DNA from: Eledone cirrhosa
Lineage: Eukaryota
Direction of reading: 5' to 3'
Assembly (NCBI GenBank): GCA_964016885.1
Contig: OZ024744.1
Location: forward strand, 44,888,001 to 44,952,000
Length of the DNA stretch: 64,000 bases
Each line of letters starts with the position of its first letter. The stretch's first letter is position 1. The translations under genes were made by a program, and so were the position numbers. The notes under the pieces are model-generated. The model searched no databases and was not told the origin of the DNA. It saw only the letters and a list, made by a program, of their open reading frames with translations. Positions 838-57,203 of this stretch are shown here, piece after piece.

Positions 838-954
838 ATAATTGTTTCTACTTTTGGCACAAGGCCAGTAATTACCCAGTACATTACTGGTACTTTATTT
901 TATCGACCCCGTAAGGATGAAAGGCAAAGATAACCTCGGTAGAATTTGAACTCA
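838..954 (-). mobile_element. tRNA-derived SINE, 5'-truncated, inverted relative to the next copy
   Basis: Reverse complement of the SINE B box, core and tail (ttgtttctacttttggcacaaggcc...ttttatcgacccc...tttgaactca). Confidence 0.85.
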
Positions 955-1593
955 TCGGTAGAGGGTCAGACGGTTTGTAGCATAGTTACGTCCCTTGCCA
1001 TTCTGAGTCCAAATCCCGCCGAGGTTAACTTTGCCTTTCATACTTACGGGGTCGATAAAATAAAATACCAGTCACGCACTGGGGTCAATTTCATCGACTT
1101 TTCCCTCCCCCCCAAAAAAATTGCTGGCCTTTTGCCTATATAAGAAACCATTATTATTATTAAAGGGCGTTGGATTGGCAGTAGCGGTAGAGAGTCGGAC
1201 ACCATGCTTTTCAGCATAGAGTTACGGCCCTTTACGGTCTGAGTTAAAATCCCGCCGAGGTTAACTTTGCCTCCCATCCTTCCGGGGTCGATGAAATAAA
1301 GCACCAGTAATGCACTGGGGTCGATTTAATCGACTTTTCCCCCTCCCCTTCAAATTACTGGCCTTGTGCCTAAAGTATAAATCATTATTATTGGCATTGT
1401 CGGTGGATTGGCAGTATCGGTAGAGGGTCGGACGCTATGCTTTGACGTATATAGTTACGGCCCTTGCCATTCTGAGTTCAAATCCCGCCGAGGTTAACTT
1501 TGCCTTTCATCCTTACGGGATCGATAAAATAAAGTACCAGTAATGCACTGGGTAATTGCTGGCCTTGTGCCAAAAGTAGAAACAATTTTTATT
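955..1593 (+). mobile_element. Three tandem SINE copies (~955-1161, ~1164-1392, ~1401-1593)
   Basis: A-box-like TGGCAGTA(G/T)CGG in copies 2-3 (copy 1 is 5'-truncated), B-box-like GAGTTCAAATCC, core CTTTGCCTTTCATCCTTACGGGGTCGATAAAATAAAGTACCAG, tail GGCCTTGTGCC.AAAGTAGAAAC followed by TTA repeats. Confidence 0.9.
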
Positions 1594-4500
1594 GGGCTTC
1601 TCGGACGTCTGTTTGCTCGCTCTCGTAAATCTCTTTATTTACCTGTCATAAATCATTTATTGTTAAATGTTATTGTTGTGTAAGGGATATAAGTGAAGGG
1701 AAAAGTTTAATTTTGGGGCCTTTTGTCCCAAATATTTGAACTTGTTACTTTTAAAAATTATCGAAAAGTAAACATGGTTGAGCCGCGTCCCCCCGTGATG
1801 TCTGCTGTCGTGTGACATGTCTGCTGTTGTGTGACAACGACGTAAAAGTTGAGAGGAGGGTTACGGCGAACACAGAAATTGATACAAGCACCACCACAAA
1901 TAACGTGAACAAAGACAGCAATGACAACAACACAGAACACTAATTTTGAAAAAAAAACCACACCAACCTCAACAGTAACAGGGACAACCAAGATGCAGAC
2001 AACAGAAAAAATGACAAATGCAACAACGATATTCACACCACTAATAAGAAAATAAATAGCGACAACACCAACAGCACCAACAACACCATTTGTAGCAGTA
2101 GCAACAGCAACAGTACCAACAACAAGGGCAGTAGCAGCTGTAGCGGTGGCAACAGTGATGCCACTGAAAAAGAGACCATCTCTTTTGCAAAAGTGGCTCG
2201 CAACGTAGAAACAGTCCTGGTCGCAGAGGAGGAGATGGCGGTCGCAAGACACATGCTAACCAGAACTGAATTTTCAGTGTCCTTGAAACCACCAACCGAC
2301 TTCCTGGAGGAACAAGAACGACGCACAGTGTCATACCTCACAATTGCCTCGAAATCGCCTCATGTGGAGAGAACAACGGAAGCCCAAATCCAGAACTGTG
2401 TGCCAAAAAGTAGAAACAAGATTATAATAATATCATAATATTCGGTTTGTTTGCAAACAACGAGCTTAAAAAACACCATGTGTGTTTTCTAGATGAGCAA
2501 TGTCACCCTTTTGTTAAGCGGCAAATCCCACATCACATGAGGCAGAAAGTACGCCACAGAAGACGTACTTTTCGCTACCTCCCAAGAAGCGAAGTCTCAC
2601 TCTTTGCAAACCCTAAAGAGTGAGGAGATAGTCTTGGTGCCCTTCTACTGCGGGCAAAAAATTGTGAGGGTCAAAGTGACCCAGGTCCCACCCGACGTGC
2701 CCATACCTTGGCTTGCTGCGTCTGTCCTTGCTGGAATCGAGGACAGGACGACCATGCTGCAAGTAGAGAAAATAGGGAGAGAGAACTGGTCAGGTATAGG
2801 CATGCAAAGGCTTATACAAACTGACGTGGAGTGTATCGACGCTATCCCCAAGGAAGGACTCCATCTCCCTATAAGCGTGGAAGGAAGACAGCCAAAATGT
2901 TATCTCTGTGGGTCAAAGGGTCACCTCAGGGCCTTTTGCCTGCAGAAGACAGCGAAGAAGAAGGCCCCTCTCCTTCCAATACCTGGTCCGCTGCTACCAA
3001 GAGCAGGGCAGGCAACTAACACAGGAGCCCCTTCCACGGTGAGTAGGAGGGCAACGTCCGTGGCACCCGTACCAAGGCCACGGATAACTAAAGCAGCATC
3101 ATCAGTAGCGGCAACACAATGGCTACATTTGAAGTAGCTGCACCAGCAACAATATTGCCGGAAAGGGCTCCACTTCCTCCACCAACAGCCGTGGAGCACA
3201 TACCCCTCCCAGACGCTACGGAATCCAACTTGGAGTCTGAGACAGGAGTGAAGTGGCAAACGGTCTGCCACAAAAACAAAAAAAAACAAAAAAACCTTAG
3301 CTTCACCCTCCAAAAGCGAAGGCACACAAAGAAAGGTAAAGGCTGCAAGGAGACTTGCAGCAACACCACCACCATCACACATCACCATCACCACCACAAG
3401 CACCACCGCCAACAACAACCACACCACCACCAGTATCACCAAAAACACCAACAATGCAAACACAACAAAACACACACACCAAACAGTGACAAAAAGAAAA
3501 CAGCAACAAAATCACCCCTCCCCCCAAAAAGTACACAGCCAAACATGGCAAATAAAGAACTCATACGACATATAAAGCAGCACACAGACATCACAGAAAA
3601 AAACTACTACACCCCACCAACACCAAGAACTCTCCCGACAAACATAAGCATCATTGATATCAAAATAGAAGAGTACAAACTTTTAAAACAAAAATTCCCC
3701 AACGCAGTTGGAGACTTCAGAGGGTCGGTTACCAAGAGGATATTCACTGACATCCTCTTGGAAACCCCCATGACCAGCCAAAGGGACGGTTCTACTGTCC
3801 CTTCACTACATGATCAAGGTAAGTGACCCTTTCTCACTTGCCCCATTTTTCATCCAACATGGCCGTACTTAGAATAGGCAGTATAAATGCACGTGGCCTG
3901 GTGTCATCTTGGAAGCAGGGTCACCTGCTCAACGACCTCGGGTCACTAAACATAGATGTGGTGGCCATCAACGAGACCAGAATCTCCGAAGTACGAGCCT
4001 TCGCACCGATCTTCGGCGGCTACGATGTATACGCATCTCCCAGCCGTCCAGGATCGGGTGGAGGGGTTGCCGTCCTTTTTCGGAGAGGCTTGGATCTCGC
4101 CATACGGGTCATCTTCCTGGACCCAGAAGGTAAGTCGCTGGTGTTGGACGTGACCGGCAGCGAAGGCAATGCTTTCAGGCTAGTAGCCGTCTACGCCCAA
4201 ACAGGGGCAGTACGGCCAGATTTCTTCAGACGTCTAGAGACCTTTCTTGGAACGTCCAACTCTTTAGTGTTAGTTGGCGACTGGAACGGTATCTTGGATG
4301 CAAGCTGGGATTGTCTGGGACTAGTGGATAGGGGAGGAGGGTGCAAGAGCCTCACCAACCTGCTCAGACGTTTTGAACTGTCTGACTGGTATCGACTGGA
4401 TCACCCGAATGTGCCAATGTGGACATGGACAAAACGCATCGGGTCATCCAGATCGTATCTCGATAGGGTATTCTGCAGAGAACTAAATAAGGCTAGTATA

Positions 4501-7230
4501 AGTTGTCTACAATTTAAAATAGTCGACTACACAGACCACACATTTGTGATCTGTGAGATCGACATAGACAGACTTCATAGACAAGGACCCGGTTACTGGA
4601 AGCTGAACGCGTCTTTCCCGGCGCGCAAGCCTACAGAGACCGGATTAGCGTATTAGTTAAGCGGCGTTGACGGGAGCGGTCGTCAACAACAGTTGGTGGT
4701 TCGCCCTGAAAAGGGAAATTAAAGTAGAGTCGATTAGGTTTAGCAAAGGAGTAGGTATAGAGGAAAATAGAGTAGAGGGAGAGCTAGTCAGAAAGCTAGA
4801 AGAGGTGTTTAGGACAGGCATCGCAACCGACGTGTTTGCGACGAGATTGGCACTCGACCAATTCCTCAACGCAAAACACGAAGGCTGCGTTGTCAGAGCT
4901 AGAGTGCGTGCTTTGAACAATGAGGGGACAAAAGCCGTCCAATGGGCCCGGGTGGCAGAGGCGCGACGTGTAAACAAAGCCACAATTCGGTCTTTGTCTG
5001 ACCAAAACGGGCGCGTGTTGCTCGATCCCGAGGAGATGTGTGAGGCTTTTCAGCAGCACTTTGCTGAACTGTTCGGAAGCAGCGGCGGGCCGGATCGACG
5101 TATGGACTTCAGCGCACACCTCGACGGACGGACTGCCTCAGCTCTCGACGACTGCAGCACTGTTGCGAAAAACCAATAACAGCCGGTGAAATACGGGAAG
5201 CGATGGCTAACTGCACAAGGGGTAAATCACCAGGTTTAGATGGTCTGCCCTACGAGCTTTATGCATTTATGCCAGACTTGTTCGGTGACCTCTTAGCAGA
5301 CGTCTACTGCAACTGGCGGCAGAACGGGGGCATTCCTAGTTTTGTGAGCCGGGGAGCGGTGGCGCTGCTGAAAAAGACCCGAACAAGAGGGGTGTTATCG
5401 ATAAGTTCAAGCCCATAACTCTTCTAAACACAGAGTTCAAGATTTTGGCCAAGGTGCTAGCAAAGAGGTTGGCGCTTGTCGTTGGTGGTCTGGTGGGAGA
5501 GGCGCAGACATGCGCCATTCCAGACAGATCCATCCACGACAACCTCCACCTCATGCGATACATCGTGGAGAGAGTAGCTAGGGAACCTGGCACGGGTGGG
5601 TCCTTGTTCAATTTAGATCAGTCGAAAGCTTTCGATAGGGTCGACCATCGTTACCTAGCGGCAGTCCTGAGGGCGGCTGGCTTTGGGCCCGTCTTCAGAG
5701 GCTGGATCGCTGCCATGCACAGCGACATCTGCTCTGTGGTGAGAGTGAACGGTCACCTTTCGGAACCGTTCAACATCATGCGCTAGGTCCGCCAAGGATA
5801 TCCCCTCTCGTCCTCCTTGTACGTATTGACTCTCGAGCCATTACTGCACAAATTGGAGACGTTGAGGGGATCCCGCGCGAACTAGGATGCGGAAGATCCG
5901 TATCAGCATATGCGGAGGATGTCACCGTTGTGGTGTCGAACGCCAAACACATCGAGGCGATCGGCACTACACTAAGAGAATACGAAGCGGTGAAAGGAGC
6001 AATGATCAACCAGGAAAAGTCTGTGGGCCTGCAGCTCGGCACCTGGAGTGGCAGGTCCATGCCGTCCATCAGCGTCGTCGGGCGCTGGACGGACGGACCG
6101 GTTAAATTGCTAGGGGTCTGGTTCGGTCCGGACCTCCAGACGGACAAAAACTGGGACGAGGTGACGAGCAGGGTGGCTTCTCTCACCCAAAAATGGGCGG
6201 AGAGGACGCTATCCCTGAAAGGTCGAGTGGACGTGGCGAATGCATACATCCCGCCCGTCATCTACTACCGCCTGACCGTCGTGCCTTGTCCTAAGCCTCG
6301 GCTGACTACGCTGGAGCGTTTGCTCTTTCGGTTTTTGTGGAAGGGACGCGCTCAGGCTACGGCACCTCCAACTCTTCCTCGACGATGATCAGGTGTGGTC
6401 GCCGTTTGTTAAACACATGTTGCCCCAGCTAGTCTCCTTGGCGGAGCTGCAGTCCTGGGTTAAGCGAAGACCGAGAGGAAGTGGTTGCTGACTAGAATGT
6501 CTTCAGGCGCTTACAACCCTCGACCACTCGGTCAATACCATCACTGGAAACTCAACCTTGGCGTTCTATAGAGGGTTAGTCGAGGGAAAGAGCGATGACG
6601 TACTTGGGGAAAATCTAGGCGTCGACGAAAATCAACTAGCCAATCTCTTCGGAAGATCTTTCGGGCCGGGGCCTATGGACAATTTTCAGAAATCCCTGGC
6701 CTGGCAGTGCTACCGAGGAGCTTTACCAGTTCGGGATAAACTCTACAGGCATGGAAGTGGCGTTAATCGGGCATGTACGAGATGCGCTCAGGGCGACGAA
6801 ACCGTCCTGCACGCACTCGTCCAGTTTCCGAGCATTGCTGACTTGTGGTTTTATGTCGCGTGTAGAACAGATCCATCGTGAGGATTTCGTCGCCCTCTTC
6901 CTTTAGCCGGGAAGGACAGGCATTTTTTTATCTCTCTGGTGGCCATATCGAAAGAGATAGTATGGTGGACGCGTCTGAAAGGGCTGAAGACGAGCATTTA
7001 CCTCTTCGCTGATGCCCTGATTAACTTTTTCAAATTTCATTTGAAAAGGAAAAATCAGAGTAGAGAGGGAAGTGCTCTCTTCCCATCATTTTGTTGAAAG
7101 ATGGGTGAGAGAGGCAAGAATGGCCCAAGTGAATGGACCTACTCTGAGTATGTGCCTGTAAATTGAAGGGCACTTGCCCTGGTGGTCAGGGTTACCGTGG
7201 CTTTTTTAATAGGCTTGTGGTTAATAAAGA

Positions 7231-7271
<41 letters not shown>
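1594..7271 (+). mobile_element. Tx1-like (L1 clade) non-LTR retrotransposon copy 1, near full length, disrupted
   Basis: ORF1 remnants with CCHC knuckle CYLCGSKGHLRAFC; ORF2 remnants with APE endonuclease (SINARG, INET, GDWN, LDRVF, TDH), RT (SPGLDG, LDQSKAFDRVDH) and a C-terminal Cys motif; ends AATAAAGAAAG(TTA)n. Confidence 0.92.
3859..7162 (+). pseudogene. Tx1 copy 1 ORF2 (APE endonuclease + reverse transcriptase), frameshifted and deleted
   Basis: ORF fragments 3823-4656, 4667-5179, 5445-5786, 5930-6388 and 6558-6881 are colinear with ORF2 of copies 3 and 4. Confidence 0.88.
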
Positions 7272-7477
7272 GGGCGGTGGATTGGCAGAATCGGTAGAGG
7301 GTCGGACGCCATGCTTTCCAGCATAGTTACGTCCCTTTACGATCTGAGTTCAAATCCCGCCGAGGTTGACTTTGCCTTTCATCCTTACGGGGTCGATAAA
7401 ATAAAGTACCAGTAATGCACTGGGTAATTGCTGGCCTTGTCCCTAAAGTAGAAACAATTATTATTATTATTATTATT
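7272..7477 (+). mobile_element. Full-length SINE between two (TTA)n tracts
   Basis: GGGCGGTGGATTGGCAGAATCGG...GAGTTCAAATCC...GTAGAAACAA(TTA)n; preceded by the Tx1 copy 1 tail. Confidence 0.92.
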
Positions 7478-7545
7478 GGTCTAAAGTACCAGTAATTAAC
7501 TGGGTATTTGCTGGCCTTGTGCCTAAAGTAGAAACAATTATTATT

Positions 7546-10500
7546 GGTCTAAGCGGACGTATTTTGCTCGCTCCTAGTAAGTCGCTTTATTTGCCTGTTT
7601 AAATTATTTGTTGTTAAATATTTCTTGTTGTGTAAGGGATATAAGCCCTTAGACTTTGCCCCGTGAAGGGAAAAGTATAATATTTGCGCCTTTTGGCCCA
7701 AATATTTGAACTTTTTTTACATGTTAAAAAATTTACGAAGAAAAAAAAACATGGCTGAGCCACGCCCCCCAGCTATATGTCGGCTGTCGTGCGACAACGA
7801 CGTAGAAGTTGAGAGGAGCGCTACAGCGAAATTAACACACATTGATAACACAAACACCACCACAAACAAGGAAAACAAAGACACCAATGATACCAATAAG
7901 AACTCTAATTTTGACAAAATTGACAGTAACAGCGACAACGAAAATACAGATAACAAAAAAAAAGATAACAAATACAACAACAATATCAACACCACTAACA
8001 TGAAAACAGATAGCGACAACACCAACAGCAACAATACCAACTGCACCGAGAACAACGGTGGCAACAAAGACAACAATGATAACAGCGACAGTGCTAACAA
8101 CAACACCAACAAGAACAACGTCAACAACACCCCCAACGAAAACAAGAACACTTTCGCTGCGGCAGCAGCAAAAAAGAGGCCATGCTTCAACATGGACCTC
8201 TCAACCAAAGATGAAAAGTTGGCCCAGGCATGGAAGCTCATCAAGCAAGAGCAAACTTGGGCCAACTTAACTGTCCCGGTAGAAGCTATTGAGGCAGTGG
8301 AGCGCAAAACGGTGCATTATAGATGCATCTCAGCACAAACCAAAAGGGCAGCGTTAATCCCACAAGAAGATGTCGAAGTCGCGCTGAGGTGCATCAGAGA
8401 AGACACCCAGTACATAGAGAGGGGAAGACAGTACGGCACCATTTCGGTGTTGTTCAAGTCAGAAGCCCTCGCTATGAAACACTCTATGACTCCTTGCAAA
8501 ACCAGCAAGGTGATAATGTACCCCTCCCACATGGGAAAAAGAACGGCCCGTCTCCGCATTCCCAGAATCCCACCAGGACTTGACATGTGGTGGCTTCTGG
8601 GATGTGTGATTGTGGAGGGGACGGATACAGTCCCTATACAAGTGACAAGAACGGCCAGAAAGGACTGGTCTGGGGTTGACCTGGAGATACTTCTCCAGAT
8701 CAGGCCCGAGAATGTGAAGACAATCCCAGACCACATCCGCCTTCAGAATGGGACGGCCATTCACATTATGACCGAAGGCAAAAGGCCGCAGTGTTTTGTT
8801 TGTGGGGAAAAAACCCATTTGCTAGCCTTCTGCCCTCAACTGCTGAAAGACGCAAGGGGTCGAAAGGCTCCACTGCTACCGACGCCGGGGCGAGGACAAC
8901 AACCAACACCTGCACCGGCAAAACCACCAACAACAATACCAATAGAAAGACCACCACCAACATTGACCACCTTGGGTGGAAACGAGGAAAGCTGTCAAAT
9001 TCCCCCTCTCCCCCAAAATACACACACAAATAAAACCTTAAACATACATACAGACGCACTTACAGACACAGACCCCTCATCTACCAGTAGTGAAAATGAG
9101 GGAAATCCAAAATCCCCCAAAATACAAAAAAGGAAACACAAAAAGAGAAAAAAACTCAACAAAGCACAAAAGCACCCACAATAAAAAACGCAGATACCAC
9201 CCACGCAAACATCTCTCCAATAACACCAACATTAACACCACCATCACCATCATCGAAATCCCCCAAACGCAAACAACCGAAACAGACGCAAGAACAAATA
9301 TACACACAAACATCTGAAACCACAGACACCGCACTCACAACAAACACAGATACAACCGAAACAACACCACCAAAACATCACCACCACAGCCACGCAAACA
9401 AATAAAATCACACCAACAAAATATACAAAATTTCGTGCTCGTCAGGAGGGCCAACAAGGAACTGATGGCCCTCGTTGCACGAAGTGAAAATATACAAAAA
9501 GAAGGGGAAATGTTTTAATCGAGCACATTTCGCGTGCCGGAAGATGTGGTTGGTGGTCTTTAGTTAAGAAAAAGTTGACAGGGGGAGTCGTCAACAATAG
9601 ATGGTAGGGCGGGGGGCTCTCAAAAGAGAGATTAGAGTAATGTCGATAGAGTTTAGCAAAGAAGTAGCACTAGAGAACAATAGAAAGGAGGGGGAGTTGG
9701 TAGATAAGTTAGACGAGGCTATTGGTAGTGGTATTGCAACTGATGTGCTAGCGGCGATAATGGCATTAGACCATTTCTTCAATGCGAAACACGAAGGTTG
9801 CATTGTCAGAGCTAAGGCGCGTGCTCTGAGAAACGAGGGAACCAAAGCTGTTCGATGGGCCCGCGTGGCAGAGGCGCAGCTTGGTAATAAAACCACGATT
9901 CGGTCTTTGACGGACCGAGAAGGGGACACGAGCTGAGCGATTCCAAGAGGATGTGTGAGACCTTTCGCCAACATTTTGCTCGGTTGTTCGGGGGAAGTGG
10001 CGGGTCAGAGTTGGTGGCGGATTTCAGTCCCTACCTCGATGGCTTGCCGCAACTCTCGACGGCTGACGCTGGGCGCTGCAAAAGGCCAATTACTTCAGCC
10101 GAGATTCAGGATGCCCTTGTAGGCTGCATGAGGCGAAAGTCACGCGGTTTGGATGGTCTGCCCTACGAGTTTTACATAAATATGCCAGACTTGTTCTCAA
10201 ATCACCTCGAAGCCCTCTACTGCAACTGGCAGCAAAACGGGAGTACTCCCAGTTCTGTGAGCCGGGGGGTAGTGACGCTGATGAGGAAAGACGAGAACAA
10301 AAGGGACACATTAGACAATTTCAGGCCCATAACTCTGCTCAACACAGAGTTTAAGATTTTGGCCAGGGAGTTAGCGAAGAAGTTGGCGCTTGTCGTCGGG
10401 GATTTGGTTGGGGAGGCGCAAGCTTGCGCAATCCCAACCAGGTCCATACACGACAACCTCCACCTAATGCGATACATCATAGAGAGGGAAGGGTGTAAAC

Positions 10501-12461: not shown

Positions 12462-12517
<56 letters not shown>
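7546..12517 (+). mobile_element. Tx1-like LINE copy 2 (endonuclease region missing)
   Basis: Open ORF1; ORF2 resumes at ~9575 without the APE domain; RT motifs LDQSKAFDRVDH and AYADD; CPRC...H...C motif; ends AATAAATGAAATC(ATT)n. Confidence 0.92.
7751..9184 (+). CDS. Tx1 ORF1 protein: Asn-rich N-terminus, conserved core, CCHC zinc knuckle, Pro/Lys-rich tail
   Basis: Open frame from AAACATGGCT; knuckle CFVCGEKTHLLAFC; core similar to ORF1 of the other copies. Confidence 0.82.
   Translation: MAEPRPPAICRLSCDNDVEVERSATAKLTHIDNTNTTTNKENKDTNDTNKNSNFDKIDSNSDNENTDNKKKDNKYNNNINTTNMKTDSDNTNSNNTNCTENNGGNKDNNDNSDSANNNTNKNNVNNTPNENKNTFAAAAAKKRPCFNMDLSTKDEKLAQAWKLIKQEQTWANLTVPVEAIEAVERKTVHYRCISAQTKRAALIPQEDVEVALRCIREDTQYIERGRQYGTISVLFKSEALAMKHSMTPCKTSKVIMYPSHMGKRTARLRIPRIPPGLDMWWLLGCVIVEGTDTVPIQVTRTARKDWSGVDLEILLQIRPENVKTIPDHIRLQNGTAIHIMTEGKRPQCFVCGEKTHLLAFCPQLLKDARGRKAPLLPTPGRGQQPTPAPAKPPTTIPIERPPPTLTTLGGNEESCQIPPLPQNTHTNKTLNIHTDALTDTDPSSTSSENEGNPKSPKIQKRKHKKRKKLNKAQKHPQ

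Positions 12518-17981: not shown

Positions 17982-18045
<64 letters not shown>
12518..18045 (+). mobile_element. Tx1-like LINE copy 3, full length with stops and frameshifts
   Basis: ORF1 remnants from 12726 (CVVCGEGTHLRAFC); complete ORF2 path 14318-17738 (EN, RT with AYADD, CPRC..ETVLHALVQC); (TTA)n tail 17983-18045. Confidence 0.94.
14318..17738 (+). pseudogene. Tx1 copy 3 ORF2 (EN-RT-Cys domain), few lesions
   Basis: Fragments 14421-15413, 15414-15716, 15729-16568, 16363-17127 and 17127-17738 are separated by single stops or frameshifts. Confidence 0.9.
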
Positions 18046-18046
<1 letters not shown>

Positions 18047-21993: not shown

Positions 21994-22049
21994 TTATTAT
22001 TATTATTATTATTGAATGCTCTGGTTGACGGAGGCCCGGCTCTGTAAGG

Positions 22050-25000
22050 CAGTGGTCGCCAACATGGGTTCCGGGGAACCTTGGGGTTCCGTAAAACAAA
22101 CTCCGGGTTCCTTAAAAAAATAAATATTTACATTACCATTAATAATTTGGATTTTCTGAAAAAGGTGCAAAGAAAATGCCAAAGGTGCAATGTATAAATG
22201 AACAAGTACTATTGTAGTGTACACAGGTTCTCCACTCCAATTCGTGGAAAACACTACTTTCAGTTTCTCACTTGAATTAGCAGAAAAACACTGTTCTGAG
22301 ATTCGTGGAAATTGAATACTTTCAATTTCACATCAATTCTTGGAAAGACATAGTTTTCTGAATTCCGAGAATTTGACTACTACTCATAATACACTAATTG
22401 AACTTAGAAATTGACCAATCACGAACAAGTAAACGTTGGTCGATGACAGCAATCTTTAAACTGAAAACTTCAGTTCAGCGAGGTCTCTCAGCCAAAAAGC
22501 AGGGTCAGTTCGCTGTTCTCACAACGTAAGTTCAGTAGAATGTTTTCAATAGAGAACGCGTTTTAATCTGCTGCCCTCACAAAAGCTTTAAAGTCGTCTA
22601 AAGTTTCCTCACTGAGTGAACTCGCTTACTAGTCGTTTTCAACATGCATCCAGTTCCACAAACAATTCTAAATAAGAACATGTTACATTCTGTTGTACTT
22701 TGCACAGAAAATATAACGCCTGTAAAGTTTTGATTACTAACAAAGGTAATTTTGTATTCCATGCATACACTATAAACTTTGCCACACAATTATGTATTCA
22801 TTTGATGAAATATATTTACATTACCAATAATATTTAATACGACCCTAAAGTAGTATATGCAGGAAGTGCTGGACTCTGAAAAAATTTCTTCTAGTTGTTC
22901 ATAAATTTGCACCTTTTTCAGTAACCCCTAATATTTTAATATTATTATAAGACTTTAAATAATGTTTGCCATCCTAAAATGGAGAAATTTCAATTTTTAA
23001 AAATTAAAATTTTTTTTTAACTAGTTAAGTTTTTCCAAATATCTAAAATTAAAGTTAATTTAAGAACTTTTTGTAATTAAAAAAAACTGTTAATTTCTCT
23101 TGTTTATTAATGTCATATTAAAAATGTTAACTGTAGATAAATAACCTTGATATTATGTCTACTGCAAAGAAGCTGAAGTTAGATACCAGCAGTAAGGTTA
23201 AACAGTGGTGTGATGATTATGTTAGATATGGATTTCAAAAAGCTGACACTAAAAAAGATACACCAGATCAGCCCATGTGTTTGCTATATTCAAAAGTTCT
23301 ATCAAATAGCTGTTTAAATCCTGCAAAACTTAAAAGACACATTGATACTAATCACACCAATGATAAAAACAAGTCACTGGAATCACAAGCTAATATGTAT
23401 GACTTGTTTTGTAAAAAGTCAGATAGAAATAAAGCTTTAACAAGAACATCTTTTGAGATTTCACATTGGTAAAAACCAGAAAACATTTACATTAGGAGAA
23501 CAGTTAATTCTACCAAGTATAAAAATTGCTACAGAGAATCTTTTTGAAAGCTGCAGTATTAAGGACAAAGAAAATTAAGCCAGTTACCATTGTCAGCAAA
23601 TACCGTAAAAAGAGGATAATTGATATTTCTTCTGATATAGAAAATCAGATACTAACTGCACTAAAGAAAAGCCCATGTTTTGGACTGCAAGTGGACGAAA
23701 CTACGGATATTAATAACAAGGCTCAATTAATTTGCTATGTACGGTTTGTAGACCTTGATAAAAAAGAATTAGTAGAAGAGTATTTGTTTTGTCTGGCATT
23801 AGACATCACAACTAAAGGTCAAGATATATTCAATAAAATTGAAGAGTATTTTTTTAAAAAATGGTGTATCTTGGAGCAAGTTGACTTCAATAACAACAGA
23901 TGGAGCAGCTGCAATGACTGGTTAAAATTCTGGTTTGATTGCAAAAATTAAAGAACAGACCCCAAATTGTATTTCAAATCATTGTATGATTCATCGAGAG
24001 GTTTTGTGTTAAAAAAAATTCATAGACAGAGATGCTCAAATATTAAATGACCAGCTGAAAGACATTGTCAAAATTTCAATTTGATCCATGCAAGAGCAAA
24101 AAATTCTAGAATGTTTGAATCTATTTGTGAATCTTCTGGAAGTAATTATAATAGATTGTTATTGAACAATGATGTGCGTTGGCTGTCTTTTGGGGATGCT
24201 ATGAAGAGAGTTTTTGAACTGAGAGAAGAAATAATAGTTTTTCTAAAAAAACAGAATGATGAAAGAGCAAGTGTATTAGAAACCAATGAATGGAATGTGC
24301 AACTCGCTTATTTAGTAGACATTTTTGGTGAACTGAACAAACTAAATAAGTGTCTTCAGGGTAACAATGCAGATATTTTTACTTCAATCAATTTTATTAC
24401 ATATTTTCAATCAAAATTAAACATCTTTATAAAAAGAATTGAATCGGACAATTACTTTCAAACCTTGAAATAGAGCTTAAAAAGAGAGAAAATTTTGACT
24501 CCAGCAATCTAAAGAAGATTATTCTTTCTCATTTAAATGTGCTTTCCACAGATTTTTCAGATTATTTTGATGGAAAAAGATATTGTTAGCGGAAATTTAC
24601 GGATAAAATACCCGTTCACCGAGATCGAGCAGTTAGTGTCAGAAAATGACGCTGGAAATTGTAAAAATTTACTACCTACCCAATGCTTACATCAGTTGAT
24701 GGATTTGAATTCAAACGAAGACCTGAAAGTGATATTCGAAAGCAGAAAGAAAGAACTATGGATCGACTTATTCTTGATTGGGGAGTTTAATGAAATCAGC
24801 CAACTTACATTGAAATATTTGACTTTATTCCCATCTAGCTATTTGTGCGAAAAAGGGTTTTCGCAGTTGGTGGAAATCTGCACAAAGAAGAGGAATAAAC
24901 TGTCAGCAATTGACGAGTGTATGAGACTGGCATTAACTAGTGTTGAACCTCGATTTTCTAAACTCACTGATGAGGCGCAGCAGCAGAAAAGCCATTGTGT

Positions 25001-25142
25001 TCGATTACATACACACGCATGAAACACTAAAATAAATAAATACTTTATTATTTTTTTTGAAAAGTTTTGTATTGTATAGGTTCCGTGAAGAATTCAAAAT
25101 ATTTAGAGGGTTCCTCGGTTTTAGAAAGGTTGGCGACCACTG
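22050..25142 (+). mobile_element. hAT DNA transposon, Buster/Charlie type
   Basis: 14-bp TIR CAGTGGTCGCCAAC / GTTGGCGACCACTG; 8-bp TSD CTGTAAGG at 22042-22049 and 25143-25150 with central TA. Confidence 0.96.
23155..25022 (+). pseudogene. hAT transposase, frameshifted
   Basis: BED-like KLKRH..TNH, FGLQVDETTD, CMIHRE, RWLS, and C-terminal dimerisation motif FPSSYLCEKGFS. Confidence 0.9.
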
Positions 25143-25329
25143 CTGTAAGGTATTGTAAATTTTGACCGCTATAACAATTGTAAATTGTTTAAAACTTTAA
25201 CCAAATTGTAGACAAACACACCCTCCTCCTCGTGAAAGGGGTCTTTTTGCCCGTTATTTGGCCCTTCGGGGTTAAATAACCGCTTATTGGGGTTTTGTGC
25301 CCAATATTTATTTTAAACAAAAAAAAAAC

Positions 25330-27447
25330 ATGGCTACGAAAAAGAATTTTCATAGGTCACTCCCACTCATTCCGTCTTCTTCTTCCTCAATCGTCACTAC
25401 AGCAGAGAGAAGACTGTCTCTCTCCCTCCCTTCTCTAAATGTGTCTCTCTCCCTCCATTCTCTTTCGCAAGCGACGCCAGAAAAGAAAAATCACGTGCAA
25501 AGCGTGCAAGATTTCTCCACGACGACGACGACAACGACGAAAAAGGTGTGCGGGAAATACGAAAACCCATTTCATTCGTCTGACGTCAGGAATAATAGCA
25601 GCAGCAGCAACAGTGACAAGGAAAATAACAGTAGCAGCCGCAACAGCATCAGCAGCAGCATAAACAACAACAGCATTAGCAGCAACAACAACAGCAGCAG
25701 CAGCAGCAGCAACAACAACAACAATCACAGCAACAGCGGCGGCGGCAGTAGTCGTAGTATCTGCAGCAACAACAAAAGTAACAGCAGCTCTGACGACAAC
25801 AACAACAACAACAGCAGCAAAGAAAAACCAATCTCGTTTGCAGGTATCGCAAAGAACCTGGAAACCATCCTCATAACAAATGAGGAATTAGAGGAAGCGA
25901 AGAAGATGGTGATAAAGACTGGACACCGAGCAATCTGCAAGGCAGCGGAAACATTTTTCGAAACCCAACAGCACTGTACGGTCACGTACCGTACAGTAAG
26001 CACAAAATCCCGTAGGGTTGAAAGAGCCACAGAGGCTCAAATACAAAAAGCCTTAGGGTCTGTGTGGCAGCGGAAAAAGCACATCACCCGAGGCAAGAAA
26101 TATGCCACCGTAGACGTGCTTTTTGGCACACCCCAGGAGGCAAAGGCTCAATCCTTAGTGACCATAAGGAACGAGGAAATGGTGTTGGTGCCCTCCTACT
26201 GCGGGCAAAAAATTGTGAGGGTCAAACTGACCCACGTCCCCTCCGGGATGGCCCCTTCTTGGCTGGCCGCGTCTGTCCTCGTCGGAATCGAGGACAAAAC
26301 AACTGTACTGCAAGTACAGAAAAAAGTAAGAGAAGATTGGGTCGGCACCTCCATTGAGATGTTAATCCAAACCAACCAGGAGTGCATCGAAGCTATCCCG
26401 GATGTAATAGACTTCAATAACGGCACTCAACTGCCCATAAGTGTTGAGGGCAAACACCCGAAATGCTTTCGCTGTGGATCGAAGACTCACCTCAGGGCCT
26501 TCTGCAAAGAGAAGACCCTGAGAAAGCAGAAAACCCCCCTCCTTCCAAAACCGGCTCCACGGCTATCAGCAACAGGACAAGCGGAAACCAGGAACGATAG
26601 GTCCGTGGCACCCATACCCACGCCACGGAAATCAAAAACAGCAGCAGCAGTGGAAGTATTAACAAGAACAACAGTAATACCAAATGCAGCTGCAACAGAG
26701 ACTCCAGTGCAAACATCACCAACAACAACAAGTGAAAGAGTGGAGCTAGTACCCCTCCCCGACCTCACAGAATCAGATATGGAGTGTGAGGTGGGAGAGG
26801 GATGGCAAAAGGTCGTAAGAAGGCACAAACGCAGAAGCAGCGCATCATCGCCTTCGAAAAGGGAGGAAAGACAGGAAAAAAGGGTAAAGGCTACTGCAAA
26901 GAGACTCACAGCAGCAACACCACCAACACCATCACCACCCACACTAGCAGCACCATCACCACCGTCGACAACCCCACCGCCAACAACAACACCTTCAACA
27001 CCACACCCACAAGCACCAACATCGCAAACACAACAACAAAACACACACACCCAGCAACAACGACAAGAAAATAGCAGAACCACACCCCACCCCCAGAAAA
27101 ACAAATGCACGGCAATAAATACACACAACAAGAAACTAATCTCTTACATAATTGAACACACAGACATTTCACAGCACGACTACATAATACCAGCACCAAT
27201 CAAAACGCCAACTAACATAAGACTGCTAAAAATAGCACAGAAACAATACACAAACATTGAAACGAAATTCCCCAACGCAGTTGGTGATTTCAGAGACCTA
27301 GGAGGGACTCTCAACCGGAGAGTATATTCGGACATACTCATAGAAGAGCCGACGACCAGCCGAAGGAACGATTCAACGGTCCCTTCACCAGACGATCAAG
27401 TGAAAAGGGATGGAAAAACCATGCTTTCTCTACGAAAAGTACGGTAA
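25330..27447 (+). CDS. Tx1 ORF1 protein, open frame, Ser/Asn-rich N-terminus and CCHC knuckle
   Basis: AAACATGGCT start; CFRCGSKTHLRAFC; C-terminal KFPNAVGDFR shared with copy 1. Confidence 0.85.
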   Translation: MATKKNFHRSLPLIPSSSSSIVTTAERRLSLSLPSLNVSLSLHSLSQATPEKKNHVQSVQDFSTTTTTTTKKVCGKYENPFHSSDVRNNSSSSNSDKENNSSSRNSISSSINNNSISSNNNSSSSSSNNNNNHSNSGGGSSRSICSNNKSNSSSDDNNNNNSSKEKPISFAGIAKNLETILITNEELEEAKKMVIKTGHRAICKAAETFFETQQHCTVTYRTVSTKSRRVERATEAQIQKALGSVWQRKKHITRGKKYATVDVLFGTPQEAKAQSLVTIRNEEMVLVPSYCGQKIVRVKLTHVPSGMAPSWLAASVLVGIEDKTTVLQVQKKVREDWVGTSIEMLIQTNQECIEAIPDVIDFNNGTQLPISVEGKHPKCFRCGSKTHLRAFCKEKTLRKQKTPLLPKPAPRLSATGQAETRNDRSVAPIPTPRKSKTAAAVEVLTRTTVIPNAAATETPVQTSPTTTSERVELVPLPDLTESDMECEVGEGWQKVVRRHKRRSSASSPSKREERQEKRVKATAKRLTAATPPTPSPPTLAAPSPPSTTPPPTTTPSTPHPQAPTSQTQQQNTHTQQQRQENSRTTPHPQKNKCTAINTHNKKLISYIIEHTDISQHDYIIPAPIKTPTNIRLLKIAQKQYTNIETKFPNAVGDFRDLGGTLNRRVYSDILIEEPTTSRRNDSTVPSPDDQVKRDGKTMLSLRKVR

Positions 27448-30400
27448 GTGGTCTTTTCCACTCTATTTTAAATATGACCTCACTCAGAATAGGCAACATA
27501 AATGCGCGTGGCTTGGGGTCGTCATGGAAGCAGGGTGATCTGCTCAACGACCTCAGGTCACTAAACATAGATGTAGTGGCCATCAGCGAGACCAGAATCT
27601 CCGAAGCACGGGCCTTCACACCGATCTTCGGCGGCTACGATGTGTACGCATCTCCCAGCCGTCCTGGATCGGGGGGAGGAGTTGCTGTGCTTTTTCGGAG
27701 AGGTTTGGATCTTGCCATACGGGCCATCTTCCTGGACCCAGAGGGTAAGTTGGTGGTGCTGGAGGTGACCAGCGGAGACGGGCAAGCTTTCAGGTTAGTG
27801 GCCGTCTATGCCCCGACAGGAGCAGGGCGGCCTGATTTCTTCCGGCGTCTGGAGACCTTTCTTGTAACGTACCCCTCTTTAGTGTTAGTGGGCGGCTGGA
27901 ACGGGATCTTAGATGCACGCTGGGACTGTGTGGGATTAGCGGATAGGGGTGGAGGGTGCAAAAGCCTCACCAACCTGCTCAGGCGTTTTGAACTGTCTGA
28001 CAGGTACCGATTGGATTTCCCGATGTGCCAATGTGGACTTCGACAAATCGCATAGGGTCATCCAGATCATATCTAGATAGAGTATTTTGTAGGTAAATAG
28101 ATAGGTCTAGCACCGGCTGTCCACAATTCAAGATAGTCAGCTACAAGGGGCACAAATTCGTGATCTGTGTGCTTGACTTCATAGACGAGGACCCGGTTAC
28201 TGGAAGCTAAACGCGTCCTTACCAGCGCGCAAGGCCTACAGAGACCGGATTAGCGAACTTGTTAAGCGGGCGTTGACGAGGGCCATCGTCAACAACAAGT
28301 GGTGGTTTGCTCTGAAAAGAGCGATTAGAATAGAGTCCATTAGGTTTAGTAAGGCTTTAGCAATAGAGAAAAATAGAGCAGAGGGAGAATTAGTTAGAAA
28401 ATTAGACGAGGCGCTTAGCAAAGGCATCGCGACCGACGTGCTTGTGGTGAAATTGGCCCTTGACCAATTCTTCAATTCAAAGCACGAAGGCTGCGTTGTC
28501 AGAGCTAGGGTGCGTGCTCTCAGACACGAGAGGACGAAAGCCGTTCAATGGGCCCGAGTGGCGGAGGCGCGTCGTGGCAACAAAGCCCCGATCCGGTCTT
28601 TGGTGGACCACGACAGGCGCATGCTACTCGATCCCGGGCAAATGTGTGAAGCCTTTCAGCGACACTTCGCTCAGCTTTTCGGGGGCAACGGTGGGCCGGG
28701 TCGAGGGATGAACTTTAGTGTCTACCTCGACGGACTGCTGCGGCTCTCGGCCCCTGAAGCGGAGTGTTGCGAAAAGCCGATAACAGCCGCTGAAGTACGG
28801 GAGACAATGACTGGCTGCACAAGGGGTAAATCGCCTGGTTTGGATGGTCTGCCCTATGAACTTTACGTACAGATGCTAGACTTGTTCGGAGGCCTCTTGG
28901 CGGACGTCTACTGCAACTTGCAACAGAACGGGAGAATTCCCAGCTCTGTGAGCCGAGGTGCGGTGGCACTGCTGGGAAAGGATCCGAACAAGGGGGATAA
29001 CATAGATAATTTCAGGCCCATAACTCTGCTAAACACAGAGTTCAAGATTTTGGCCAAGGTGCTAGCAAAGAGGTTGGCGCTTGTCGTTGGTGGTCTGGTG
29101 GGAGAGGCGCATACATGCGCCATTCCCGACAGATCCATCCACGACAACCTCCACCTCATGCGATACATCGTAGAGAGGGTAGCTAGGGAACCTGGCACGG
29201 GTTCGCGTCCGTCATCGCGTCCGTCATCTACTACCGCCTGACCGTCGTACCTTGTACTAAGCCCCGTCTGACTGCGCTGGAGCGTTTGCTCTTTCGCCTT
29301 CTGTGGAAGGGACGCGCTCCGATGGTCAAGCGGTCCATCTGCTGTCAACACCCACTATATGGAGGGCTGGGCATGCCGTGGCTGATGATGCGCAGACACG
29401 CGCTCAGGCTACGACATCTCCACCTCTTCCTCGACGGTGATCAGCTGCAGTCCTGGGTCAAGCGAAGACCGAGAGGGAGTGCTTGGAGAATGGAATGTTT
29501 TCAGGCGCTCACAGCCCTCGACCAATCGGGCAATGTGATCGGTGCAAACTCCACCTTGGTGTTCTATAGAGGATTAGTGGAGGGGAAGGGCGACGACGTA
29601 CTTGGAGAAACTCTAGGCGTCGACGAAAATCAACTAGCCAATCTCTTTGGAAGGACTTTCGGGCCGGGGCCTATGGACAACTTCCAGAAATCCCTGGCCT
29701 GGCAGTGCTACCGGGGAGCTTTGCCAGTTCGGGATAAACTCTACAGGCATGGAGGTGCCATCAGTCGGGCATGTCCGAGATGCGCGCAGGGCGACGAAAC
29801 CGTCCTGCACGCACTCGTCCAGTGTCCGAGCATTGCTGACTTGTGGGTTTATGTCGAACACCTGCTGTCACGTGTAGGACGGATCCAGCTATCAGCTGAG
29901 TCCATCGTGAGGATTGCCTCGCCCTCTTCCTTTAGCCGGGAAGGGCAGGCAGTTTTTATCTGTCTGGTGGCCATGGCGAAAGAGATAGTATGGTGGACAC
30001 GTTTGAATGTGCTGAAGACGAGCACTTTTCTCTTCCGTGATACCCTGATTAACTTTTTCAAATTTCATTTGAAAAGGAAAATCAGGATAGAGAGGGAAGT
30101 GCTCTCTTCCCAGCATTTTGTTGAAAGATGGGTGAGAGAGGCAAGTATGGCCCGAGTGAATGGGCCTACTCTGAGTATGTGTCTGTAAATTAAAGGTGGA
30201 AAACTGGGAGAGGGCACTTGCCCTGGTGGTCAGGTTCACTGTGGTCTTTTAATGGGCTTTCTCCACAAATGGCTCTCGGATGTTCCCCCCTATTGGGGAA
30301 TCTTTCTTTGTTATTTTATTACATCCTCTGTTTTTTTTACACGCAGAAATGCCCATTTGTACCGTCCTGTATTGTCCTGTACTGTCCTTAATGTCTACTT

Positions 30401-30453
30401 TATGTGAACCCTTGTGGTTAATAAAGAAAACATTATTATTATTATTATTATTA

Positions 30454-30541
<88 letters not shown>

Positions 30542-33324
30542 GTTCTTTGAGACTTAGTCATGATGTTATATTACGATGTTATATAACTGGAGGGCGGTGG
30601 ATTGGCAGTATCGGTAGAGGGTTGGACGCCATGCTTTCCAGCATAGTTACGTCCCTTTACGATCTGAGTTCAAATCCCGCCGAGGTTGACTTTGCCTTTC
30701 ATCCTTACGGGGTCGATAAAATAAAGTACCAGTAATGCACTGGGTAATTGCTGGCTTTGTGCCTAAAGTAGAAACAGTTATATAACTGGAAAGTTTGTTG
30801 AAATGAATATCAAGCCACTACCTGCAGCCTCAGATATTCAGGGCGTATCGGAGGGTTCTTGCTGTTCCCAGCAACCATGCCTTTTGAAGTGTTCCAAAAA
30901 GCGGGGCGTAACCAATTTTTTTTAACCATCCTTGGAAACTCTTTGAGATAGTCCCTAGTGCGCCTATCACAATCGGGACCACTTTGACCTCATGGCAGTT
31001 CCAAATCCTTTTTACATCCCACTTTAAGTCCTGGTATCGGTTAATTTTCTCCCTCTCCTTCTATTGCACTCTCGTGTTGAATCGGCAGGTTACATCCACA
31101 ATCAGGCACGATCGTTTTTCTTGTCTAAAACCAACAGGTCAGGTCTATTGTGTTCCAGTTTCTTGTCCGTCTGTATCCTAAAATCCCACAGCACATTCAC
31201 CTGATCGTATTCTATCACCGACTTTGGCTTGTGCTCTTACCACTTCTCAGAATGTGGTAAATTGTTTACTTTGCATAGGTGCCAGTGGATCACCGTGCCC
31301 ATCACATCATGTCTCCAGCCTTTATAATGAGTCTGGGCTAGGTGTTTACACTCGGATACTATGTGAGCCACAGTCTCCTCTCTCTCTCTCTCCACAGATA
31401 CTACACAGTGGGCTAGCCTCCTCCTTGTAAATATGGTGTTTCAGCCACTTCGTTTTGAGGGCCTTCTCTTGCGCAGTCATTAGCATTCCTTCTGTAGCCT
31501 TTTCAAGGTCTCCTCTTTTCAACCAGTTCCATGTCTGTGGATCTCTAAATTCAGTTTTCTCAAAGAAGGCATTATGAAGGGATTTTTCATGAAGGTTGCT
31601 CTTCCTCCATGTTGTTATTTCCTCCCTGGACATCCCCTAGTCTATTGTCCTCTATTTCAGTACAGTTCTGAGCATTGACTCCTTACTATCAGTCACGTAT
31701 TTGTGTAGGTTGTTTTTCTCCATCTGAACACAGTCTTCTATGCTGATAAGACTTCTTCCACCTTCAGATCTCTTTAAGTAGAGTCTATCGACATCACTCC
31801 TCTTGTGGAACATGTTGTAGATAGTCAATAGCTTCCTAGTCTTCCTATCCATTTCTTTTTGTTCAGCAACATTCCATCTCAGAATTCCCGCACTGTACCT
31901 AATAATAGACACAGCCCAGGAATTTACTGCACTTATGGCATTCCTACTGTTCAGATGTGATTTTAATACGCTCCTTACTCTCTGAATGTATTCAGATCTT
32001 ATCAATTCCTTCATTTTTTGTACTTGATGTCATCAGCCTCCAGAACACCTAAATATTTTTTATCCCTCTTCAGTATCAATTTCCTTTATCATCTCACCTG
32101 TTGGTACCTGGATTACGTTGCATCTGCTCAACTTACCCCACTTCATCACAAGGACTCCACACTTACTAATACCAAATTTCATACATATATCACTGCTGAA
32201 AATACGGACAGTGTCAACAAGCACATCCAACTCCCTCTCACTCTTCCCGAAGATCTTAAGATCGTCCATGAAGAGGAGGTGATTGATGGTAAGCTCTCCC
32301 TTTCCCAACTTGTATCCTGCTCTCACTTTTCGCAGTATAATGGTCAGGGGGATTAGGGCCAGGACAAACAACAGAGGATTCTCCGCCCGATGTTAGCTCT
32401 GTTTTCCAGGACTTCATACTTTTGCTCAACAACTGCCTGATGTTATCTGCCACCCTGAAGATCTCTAGGCTTTTATCCAAGAATGAGGTACCATGTCGAA
32501 TGCCTTTTCGTAGTCTATCCATCCCATGGCAAGACCAGTGTGTCTCCTCCTGCAATTCCTCATTACCATCTTATCAATAAGTAACTGGTCCTTTGTACCA
32601 CGGGACTTCTTTCGGTATCCTTTCTGTTCGTCTGGTAATAAGTTGTCTATGTCCGGTAACAAGTTGCTACAATGCGTTGCTTCAGTTCCTCTATGATCAT
32701 ATTTAGCTCTTTCCTCCTAGTTTTGTACTTTATTTCCAGTCTATTTTTAGTGTCTATGTTTTGAAGTGTCCCATTCAGTAGGGACTCAATCTTTCCAATG
32801 TCATTTCTCATTTCCCTGATTTGACCATTCAGTCGTTTCTTCCACCAAGGTTCTGATATTTATTGTTTGTAGTTTCCTCTCGCTTTTATGCCAACTATTT
32901 TCCTCACCGCATTTGCTGTTGCTTTGAGGATATCAACCAAATCTTGTCCTAGCCCGTCAGCATTCATTTCCTCAATGACCGTATCTCTGTTCCAGGTATT
33001 ATTTATCTCAGCATTCAGATTATTGTCTGCTTCGGATGGTTCCTCCGTTCTCTCAACCTCTTCACCTTCATTTCCCACTGGCTCGTTTGTCTGGCATACT
33101 CCACTCTCCATTTCCAATCTAATCTCTCTGCTGAGTTCCCCCAGTTCCAGTTCGCTTATCCACCCATTAGTTCTTATTACCCGAGCCTGCCCGGCCAGTT
33201 TTGTTCATCTAATTTCAATAGACCAATCTCGTTCGAGATGCTATGCATCCGTTTCCTATAGCCTTTTCCCTTGGGGTTACTCTTCAGGTAACATTGCATA
33301 ACAGTTCTATTCCATTATTTCGTC

Positions 33325-33325
<1 letters not shown>
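30542..33325 (-). mobile_element. R4/Dong-type LINE copy 2, 5'-truncated, internally deleted
   Basis: Colinear with copy 1; HLLFMDDLK present; deletion junctions near 32375 and 32660; (TTA)n on both sides. Confidence 0.9.
30592..30776 (+). mobile_element. SINE inserted in the Dong copy 2 3' UTR, with 14-bp TSD
   Basis: GTTATATAACTGGA at 30578-30591 and 30777-30790. Confidence 0.93.
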
Positions 33326-33373
<48 letters not shown>

Positions 33374-34354
33374 TGCATTTATCTTGCTTTATGTTCATAC
33401 GAGTTATCACCAAGTCACAACCAGTGACCTCAAGAGACAACAAGGTCCGCCATGTTCAAGAAAGAACATACATACACACACATGCATCTTTAGGTGTTTA
33501 GACTTGTGATGTACTTATATTGACAGAATCTTCCTTAGTATATGGGCAGTTCCCATTAGTACTATCTTTTGTATTTCTCCCATACGCGAGTTTCCTGGGA
33601 TTTGCGATAAGTAATCCTTAGACTCCTTAGGTATCATTCACAGAGCGCCTACAACCACTGGTATTGTTTTAGTTCTCAATTTCCACATTTTTCTAATTTC
33701 TATCTCCAGGTCCTTATACTTGCTCAATTTTTCAAATGTTTTTATAGATACATTCTTGTCTATTGGAACGGACATATCAATTAGCAGGCATACCCTCTTT
33801 TTAAAGTCCTTCAGTATTATATCAGTTCTATTTTCATCTATTTTTCGGTCTGTTTGGATGCTAAAGTTCCACAAGATTGAGATGTGATCTTTTTCAAGTA
33901 TGGGAGGTGGTTGATGCTCCCACCAATTCTTTTGATGGGGCAGGTCAAAATGCTTACACATTATCCAATGTATATATTGTGCAGCTCTGTCATGCCTGTT
34001 TACGTATTCGGTTGGAGCTATAGGCCTGCACATCGAAATTATATGATCAATGGTCTCTGGTTGTTTTTCACATACACGGCATAATGGGTTGCATCCATTT
34101 TTTATTATGTTGGCTTCGTAATTTTTTGTTGGCAGACACTGATCTTGTGCCGATATAATCAGTCCTTCAGTCTCCGATTTCAGTCCAGAGGAGGCCAACC
34201 ACTGATGGGTTAAAGTTTTGTCAACATCAGGATTGTTAGCTCGTTCTGGGTATTTTCCATACAGAGGCTTTTCTTGCCATTTCTTAGCCAGTTTCTGTAG
34301 CAGTTCTTTCTTTGCAGTTACTTTTACCTGCTTTGCTTTTTCTGTGTTTTCCAT
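33374..34354 (-). mobile_element. R4/Dong-type LINE 3' fragment, different subfamily
   Basis: AQDQCL..CRVC..ETIDHIISMC..RHD..LLIDMSVP..EKLSKYKDL; 3' end abuts (TAA)n at 33326-33373. Confidence 0.85.
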
Positions 34355-48973: not shown

Positions 48974-48974
48974 T

Positions 48975-52625: not shown

Positions 52626-52674
52626 CTCAGTTTTTTCAAACACTTTTTGATTGGACTATTAGTTTTATTGTTTA

Positions 52675-56013: not shown

Positions 56014-56017
56014 ATAT

Positions 56018-57191: not shown

Positions 57192-57203
<12 letters not shown>
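56018..57203. repeat. Near-identical tandem duplication, period 613 bp
   Basis: ATGTATCTTTACCCTTTCTAGCAG at 56018 and 56631; both copies end GCAGCTCCATTATTTTCATATAT. Confidence 0.92.

Follow-up and report, generated by a model that had tools for sequence, protein, structure and literature searches.

The 64-kb stretch of the Eledone cirrhosa genome analyzed here (OZ024744.1, called C28 below, positions 44,888,001-44,952,000 of a 3.0-Gb assembly; hereafter the window) contains, at 842-34355, a train of mobile elements in which individual retrotransposon copies are stacked with (ATT)n tracts between them, a stack probably built by Tx1-like and Dong-like long interspersed nuclear elements (LINEs) using opposite strands of the repeat and accompanied by short interspersed nuclear elements (SINEs). 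The Tx1-like LINE (Tx) lies in ATT tracts with a fixed phase, the Dong-like LINE lies oppositely in the same tracts, the tract is kept on both sides, and two copies of the locus carry different cargo. All the sequence of the train is either mobile element or ATT tract; after element masking, 454 bp of 33.5 kb are left, mostly tract and the 3' end of the second Dong copy, in agreement with the near-absence of unique spacer DNA noted in the preliminary description. The masking library was partly derived from the window's own copies, with the Tx, Dong-A and SINE families multi-copy in the genome and the DNA transposon multi-copy in reads.

The preliminary description had proposed a TTA-specific Tx family and had called for its flanks to be tabulated and compared with other sites for TTA enrichment and junction phase. 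For this census, three queries with different 5' ends were used, the best 40 of 1745-1914 candidates being scored per query, which gave 30 loci each and, after exclusion of the window's own three, 87 5'-end matches (in the genome searches overall, the best 40 of 588-2625 candidates were scored by identity, and 19 for one query). An ATT tract of at least 9 nt directly adjoining the element end is present upstream of 85/87 matches, and TTATT immediately precedes the element in 80/87, whereas 664 of 109,760 background positions (0.6%), taken from 40 arbitrary 10-kb regions, show such a tract. The two matches without it are partial ones that do not include the 5' end. Thus, the family is ATT-tract-specific genome-wide, and its 85/87 exceeds the 20% of flanks that the available part of PMC4494074 takes as the mark of a repeated-target preference. 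Moreover, the junction phase is the same in Tx copies on many chromosomes and constant across subfamilies with unrelated 5' UTRs (untranslated regions).

A comparison of copies of different length shows a 5' tract in 28/28 full-length copies (overlapping the 87) versus 13/22 5'-truncated ones (p = 2e-4), the tracts of the latter measuring 9-98 nt. Before curation by hand the truncated copies gave 14/39; 17 rows were removed, 10 ending at low identity or in another subfamily, 1 with a doubtful end, 3 repeats of one tandem stub and 3 nested insertions. As truncated copies follow tracts too, far more often than by chance, an RNA leader alone does not account for the tract, which is a target. At the 3' end, 30/37 loci (1/38 was unusable) have a tract of at least 9 nt, and the others enter short ATT, (AT)n or (CTT)n, the last in 2/37. 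Since some 3' ends enter (CTT)n or (AT)n directly, long tail addition by the element is not needed, and the 3' tract is largely target-derived. Each insertion had been thought to leave a fresh target; this stands as retention of the tract on both sides, which need not mean a net gain in tract length.

Three truncated copies with different flanks (L213, L230 and L238, ~390 bp from the Tx 3' end) break at one ATTA-containing spot, which may reflect either a hotspot of microhomology or the existence of a short non-autonomous derivative. The query starts at the same spot, and selection may contribute. At L133, 96-bp Tx 3' stubs stand in tandem, each beginning within the tail of the preceding stub, and at L108, L114, L293, L306 and L345 a further unrecognised repeat family with an internal ATT tract is also used by Tx copies.

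The claim that a LINE of the restriction-like endonuclease (RLE) type shares these tracts on the opposite strand is borne out by the 3' ends of the Dong-A family, 29/29 of which enter (AAT)n. Its 5' junction falls within 1.5 kb at 9/29 loci, all nine with a tract of 15-75 nt, and in the raw short reads of two public runs Dong truncation points enter (ATT)n in 115-216 reads each. In a long Dong-A frame taken from a paralogue (P0203) a reverse transcriptase (RT) is detected, and the best solved matches are R2 proteins. By eye, this single open reading frame (ORF) holds CxxC...H...C, which we take to be a CCHC finger, and RHD and PD...D, presumably the restriction-like endonuclease. None of the 120 best relatives listed for the Dong-like RT is informatively named.

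The preliminary description had also counted one SINE family as a third tract-specific partner, and neither part of this claim survived. The SINE is a family group of at least 4-5 subfamilies, 72-94% identical where aligned, short and non-coding, making up ~2.3% of 400 kb of background. It has (ATT)3 within 15 bases upstream in 7/93 copies and a tract upstream in 2/29 of the best ones, most resolved copies showing ordinary duplications that start at Y|RTTAT. Duplications of 7-25 bp, starting right after the element end, occur in 51/93 copies, with C/T at position -1 in 44 and then A46/G5, T48, T50, A51 and T51; among those of at least 10 bp, with offsets to 20 allowed, 42/48 start at offset 0, versus ~2 expected from shuffled pairs. 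The motif Y|RTTAT is found at 0.24% of positions and is present at each (ATT)n unit. In addition, the last 26 nt of the SINE are like Tx ends (15/16 comparisons with p < 0.03) and unlike Dong ends (0/8). This Tx-like 3' end, together with the shared site motif, suggests that the SINE is probably mobilised by Tx proteins, as a passenger of the Tx1-like LINE. Its head carries by eye what we take to be A-box- and B-box-like motifs; Rfam gives no tRNA match to the head at E <= 0.1, and on window 800-35000 it matches only on an (AT)n tract.

SINE tails that precede a Tx head have a median of 24 nt (n = 12), versus 6 nt for background tails (n = 25; p = 1e-5), a difference compatible with Tx selecting long tracts as well as with a 5' leader. 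With a leader, the endonuclease would need only the short Y|RTTAT and the full-length RNA would begin with (AUU)n transcribed from the tract upstream, so that the 5' tract would be partly or wholly written by the element on integration. The tail lengths, the excess of tracts in full-length over truncated copies, the phase fixed across unrelated 5' UTRs and the SINE, which demonstrates that the motif can be short, are all in favor of such a leader. Nonetheless, no leader could supply the 9-98 nt tracts of the 13 truncated copies, long SINE tails were available for selection (1/25 of at least 21 nt), and no shared upstream flank indicating 5' transduction was seen. The leader is regarded as a rather unlikely source of the tracts. 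Also, 5' transduction was rejected as the source of shared upstream flanks, the pairs being mostly from different subfamilies.

The order of elements in the train, and of one separate unit downstream, is the following.

842-954, minus strand: SINE 3' fragment, inverted.
956-1149, 1165-1384 and 1401-1584, plus strand: three tandem SINE copies with short ATT tails.
1585-1593, plus strand: degenerate ATT tract, intact as (ATT)3 in two duplicated locus copies (L032, L033).
1594-7234, plus strand: Tx1-like LINE copy 1, with endonuclease of the apurinic/apyrimidinic endonuclease (APE) type, RT and zinc finger; ORF2 broken.
7234-7271, plus strand: (ATT)n tract.
7272-7456, plus strand: full-length SINE.
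7457-7545, plus strand: (ATT)7, SINE 3' stub and (ATT)3.
7546-12463, plus strand: Tx1-like LINE copy 2, endonuclease region not detected; broken.
12464-12517, plus strand: (ATT)18 tract.
12518-17982, plus strand: Tx1-like LINE copy 3, young subfamily, ~390 bp internal deletion; ORF2 broken.
17983-18045, plus strand: (ATT)21 tract joining the Tx 3' end to the Dong 3' end.
18046-21993, minus strand: RLE-type (R4/Dong-like) LINE of family A, 5'-truncated.
21994-22013, plus strand: ATT tract joining the Dong 5' end to the Tx 5' end.
22014-30431, plus strand: Tx1-like LINE copy 4, interrupted at 22049, internally deleted.
22050-25142, plus strand: hAT-like DNA transposon inside the copy 4 5' UTR, with terminal inverted repeats and 8-bp duplication.
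30432-30541, plus strand: (ATT)37 tract with one T-run interruption.
30542-33325, minus strand: second family-A Dong-like LINE, truncated and decayed.
30592-30776, plus strand: SINE lying within the 3' end of the Dong copy; the duplication on either side of it is 14 bp long and non-repeat (30578-30591, 30777-30790).
33326-33373, plus strand: (ATT)16 tract.
33374-34355, minus strand: family-B Dong-like LINE, represented by its 3' 1 kb; it closes the train on the right, at a junction without tract.
48579-52700, plus strand: separate SINE-SINE-(ATT)3-Tx unit.

Each TTA tract that had been listed is present at its position. ATT|G is the sequence at every one of the four Tx 5' junctions, which lie at 1594 (degenerate, TTTTTATT|G), 7546, 12518 and 22014, and all four Tx 3' ends enter (ATT)n. 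That nearly all junctions are TTA is confirmed for these tracts, but the right end at 34355 has only ATT|AAAG, and the SINE at 30592-30776 is flanked by a non-repeat duplication. The SINE stub at 7457-7545 is bordered by a 16-bp duplication (7469-7484, 7537-7552) that takes in the first 7 bases of Tx copy 2, and therefore it was likely inserted later than copy 2. The 5' end of copy 3 is 99% identical to the best genomic copies. Every LINE copy inside the window is broken. The SINE-SINE-tract-Tx unit recurs, as had been noted, at 48579-48975; its Tx belongs to an old divergent subfamily (66-78% identity to copies 1, 3 and 4), and its four closest copies all lie on the same chromosome, with common flanking DNA. 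ATTAAAG is present both at 1159-1165, before the SINE at 1165, and at 34353-34359, at the right end of the train; the whole train may sit within the duplicated target site of that SINE, a weak reading from 4 informative bases.

The 3.1-kb hAT-like element, missed like the nested SINE in the preliminary description, splits copy 4 at 36 bp after its 5' end, has inverted ends and is bordered by an 8-bp duplication (22042-22049 and 25143-25150). It is missing from 29/29 other Tx copies examined, and the uninterrupted Tx form is also present in contigs of two public runs. Its transposase-like ORFs are broken, with only a weak DUF4371 match (E 8e-4, below the cut-off).

Across the tract, the 87 Tx matches are preceded by a Tx in 22 cases and by a SINE in 20, both oriented as the match itself, by an oppositely oriented Dong in 16 and by unrecognised sequence in 29, so that the polarity rule is kept by 58/58 recognisable neighbours. 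A LINE lies upstream of 38/87 landing tracts versus 2/69 scorable background tracts (p = 7e-10; p = 0.005 against tracts of at least 15 nt), whereas 16/69 background tracts follow a same-direction SINE, whose tails are used by Tx in proportion (p = 1.0). With 44% LINE adjacency per junction, a seven-LINE chain would be reached in ~0.7% of starts, as a rough estimate, and therefore tens of trains would be expected among thousands of copies. The train at this locus is not unique, since two others are present within 1.5 Mb, one of 33 kb located 67-100 kb before the window and one of 47 kb in a diverged counterpart of this locus, 1.4 Mb away at C28:43.5 Mb.

Clustering of this kind could also be regional, from low recombination, segmental duplication or unequal crossing-over, with tracts that are merely 3' tails from reverse-transcriptase slippage. 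The 100 kb upstream are rich in transposable elements (46% Tx versus 3.6% in the background), the region is segmentally duplicated, and the paralogue has a tandem duplication and a chimera of copies 3 and 2. On the other hand, 29/87 5'-end matches have no recognised upstream element and no more than two of these 29 are without a tract, the phase is the same on many chromosomes, and a strict polarity is not expected from clustering. This explanation is largely refuted by the 5' junction census and is very improbable.

A comparison of the window with the 43.5-Mb copy gives a direct view of train growth. Both share the left flank, the SINEs, copy 1, the next SINE, Dong-A, copy 4 with its hAT-like element, the Dong-B stub and the right flank, the shared modules being 93-97% identical and the left flank 88%, with microsatellite gaps. 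Two tracts differ between them, the first divergence being at 7457-7545. After the SINE at 7272, the 43.5-Mb copy has a 22-bp Tx stub, two units of copy-4 type, the chimera and a Dong-B, whereas in the window this place is taken by the SINE stub and Tx copies 2 and 3. Downstream of copy 4, the 43.5-Mb copy carries another Dong-B and fragments, and the window the second Dong-A. The same tracts have received different cargo at the two loci, whether paralogue or allele. Shared flanks and core modules with different elements in the same tracts indicate real growth and argue against misassembly. For an assembly artefact joined through microsatellites it can be said that all joints are simple repeat and that a 4-kb test stretch is spanned by no long read or contig. 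However, the window has no ambiguous bases (N), its copies differ from one another, the separately placed paralogue keeps the same flanks and core order at 93-97% identity, and short reads of two public runs show Dong truncation points entering (ATT)n. An assembly join, which had been named as a possible refutation, is accordingly judged extremely unlikely.

The window belongs, from 683 to 64000, to a segmental-duplication family with members on C28 at 34.25, 43.5, 43.7, 44.68 and 53.9 Mb (88-98% identity). The member at 34.25 Mb was rejected as an empty site; it joins window position 2058 to 40886 inside copy 1, without 2059-40885, which corresponds to a deletion. Two other paralogues are without the train region.

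A mechanism for the stack of separate copies can be proposed from these junctions. The Tx APE domain would nick the AAT strand of the repeat, with a predicted cut at top-strand Y|RTTAT (bottom strand 5'-ATAAY/R-3') that recurs in each (ATT)n unit; this is a nick at a pyrimidine-purine step, as in L1. By analogy with target-primed reverse transcription, the 3' AUU of the RNA would pair with the nicked strand and prime, and a 7-25 bp duplication would be concealed within the repeat. Dong-like LINEs would prime on the opposite strand. The SINE would likely use the Tx machinery by way of its Tx-like 3' end, at a relaxed specificity, leaving short ATT tails that Tx copies could then use. As tracts are left at both LINE ends, later insertions would land beside earlier ones and the train would grow.

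Several points weigh against this reading. The predicted nick site is derived from SINE duplications, and the link between SINE and Tx from 26 nt and a shared motif, in a comparison limited to Tx and Dong ends. Among curated truncated copies, 9/22 have no 5' tract and one (L238/L030) has an ordinary duplication, which indicates that the specificity is not absolute. The identity-ranked samples are biased toward young copies, and at least 3 of the 87 matches duplicate other loci. Enrichment beside LINE ends could partly reflect survival in tolerant regions. In the paralogue, the two units of copy-4 type are a tandem duplication (98% identical), and some differences could be recombination losses, gains and losses being not always separable. 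Finally, no long read spans the train.

The Tx1-like LINE has two ORFs, ORF2 containing an APE endonuclease, an RT and a C-terminal zinc finger; intact copies outside the window (P0001, P0204) match PF03372, PF00078 and PF13966, respectively, for these domains. The best solved-structure match of ORF2 is L1 ORF2p (E 3e-53), and among named relatives of the protein the nearest comes from Argonauta hians (73%). In an RT tree of 42 rows, with no Repbase reference, it groups with the Argonauta protein in an animal group (93/86, unstarred) whose members include fish proteins and a coral one named TX1, with plant L1s outside. Homology searches and cluster look-up gave almost no named relatives and no named Tx1 family among the matches. 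Membership in the Tx1 clade is likely, the tree falling short of proof. The length of the endonuclease hairpin was considered as a cause of the specificity and rejected, since it equals that in human L1 and falls two residues short of the loop grafted in PDB 2v0r. Among 34 loci from a metagenome scan, most of the longer matches were ~30% identical; no ATT pattern was seen at the 11 loci whose ends were inspected, an uninformative result as to the target of relatives in other organisms. Tx subfamilies appear mosaic: copies 3 and 4 differ in 5' UTR and ORF1, yet their ORF2 regions are 93-94% identical, and copy 1 has a copy-2-like head with a copy-4-like ORF1. In the 5' UTR of copy 3, just before ORF1 (12670-12702), there is a stretch like the SINE/Tx 3' end followed by (TTA)3, with weaker forms in other copies.

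Elsewhere in the window, 58765-61234 (minus strand) is an RT-coding element for which Pfam gives RVT_1 only, its protein being presumably Penelope-like from motifs seen by eye. There are also 36-37 bp minisatellite arrays at 38931-40872 and 52980-53178, and, in 56017-57210 and 62245-63391, a 580-bp direct duplication (98%) and inverted repeats of 300-440 bp.

Microsatellite-targeting Tx1, TAA-targeting Dong, target sharing between APE and RLE types and opposite-strand sharing of a simple repeat have all been published before. According to the available part of PMC4494074, Kibi, Koshi and Tx1 families of crocodilians have (TC)n, (TTC)n, (TTCC)n and (TTTC)n as their targets; these are likewise APE-type Tx1-clade LINEs in microsatellites, but the target here, in an octopod, is (ATT)n, which is none of those of the Kibi/Koshi lineage. 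Dong, DongAg and DongBg, one of them from a mollusc, insert into TAA microsatellites (PMC3812793, as far as available); the Eledone Dong-like LINE has this target in common, and nothing is new in the Dong-like part alone, the difference being that an APE-type LINE uses these tracts too, on the opposite strand. In Bombyx mori, TRAS1 and SART1 insert in opposite directions into one simple repeat, two to three units of which suffice for recognition (PMC7265360, in part); both are APE-type R1-clade elements in telomeric (TTAGG)n, whereas APE and RLE types meet here in dispersed interstitial tracts. Keno (APE-type, Tx1) and Utopia (RLE-type) evolved the same target in parallel and form tandem insertions (PMC4640811, in part); those two insert into the U2 snRNA gene and have identical 3' flanks, whereas the target here is a microsatellite used on opposite strands. 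For SINEU and Tx1-Mar, the accessible sections of PMC4494074 describe a SINE likely moved by a target-preferring Tx1, a weaker preference in some SINE families and tandem insertions; that link was drawn from the shared target, whereas here the SINE also shares the LINE 3' end and its tail supplies new targets.

In Octopus vulgaris, Dong-R4 and L1-Tx1 are among the recently active elements (PMC13282606, available part). Octopus repeat papers list both; the word 'target' is absent from PMC13282606, and PMC8967140 uses it a single time, with a general meaning. No octopus SINE-Tx1 pair is found in the parts available of PMC4758252, PMC5786205 and PMC3747384. Neither an ATT/TTA-specific Tx1 nor target-specific cephalopod LINEs were found in the searched literature, which did not cover Repbase/Dfam, the 2004 founding paper or the supplement of PMC4494074, whose tree figure lists further targets, so that a prior deposit is possible. 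With this scope, the ATT target, the SINE link and the paired-locus evidence appear to be new.

The finding adds (ATT)n as a likely new target for Tx1 LINEs, and the intact young copies offer an assayable endonuclease. The SINE reveals a nick motif that the repeat itself conceals and provides a candidate SINE-Tx1 pair by 3'-end likeness, whereas the paired duplicated loci let train growth be read directly. It also offers a testable cause for dense LINE clusters, which the available part of PMC13282606 reports as hotspots of the octopus genome without a mechanism, and ATT microsatellites, here often LINE junctions, would be poor markers. A bolder possibility, to be taken as speculative and doubtful, is that the Tx1-like LINE writes its own target, full-length integration adding 5' ATT units, while its SINE passenger scatters short ATT sites by the hundreds of thousands across the genome and an unrelated RLE-type LINE extends the tracts from the other strand. 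If this were true, such a three-way feedback would be a major source of long (ATT)n microsatellites, as well as of telomere-like interstitial retrotransposon arrays, in octopod genomes.

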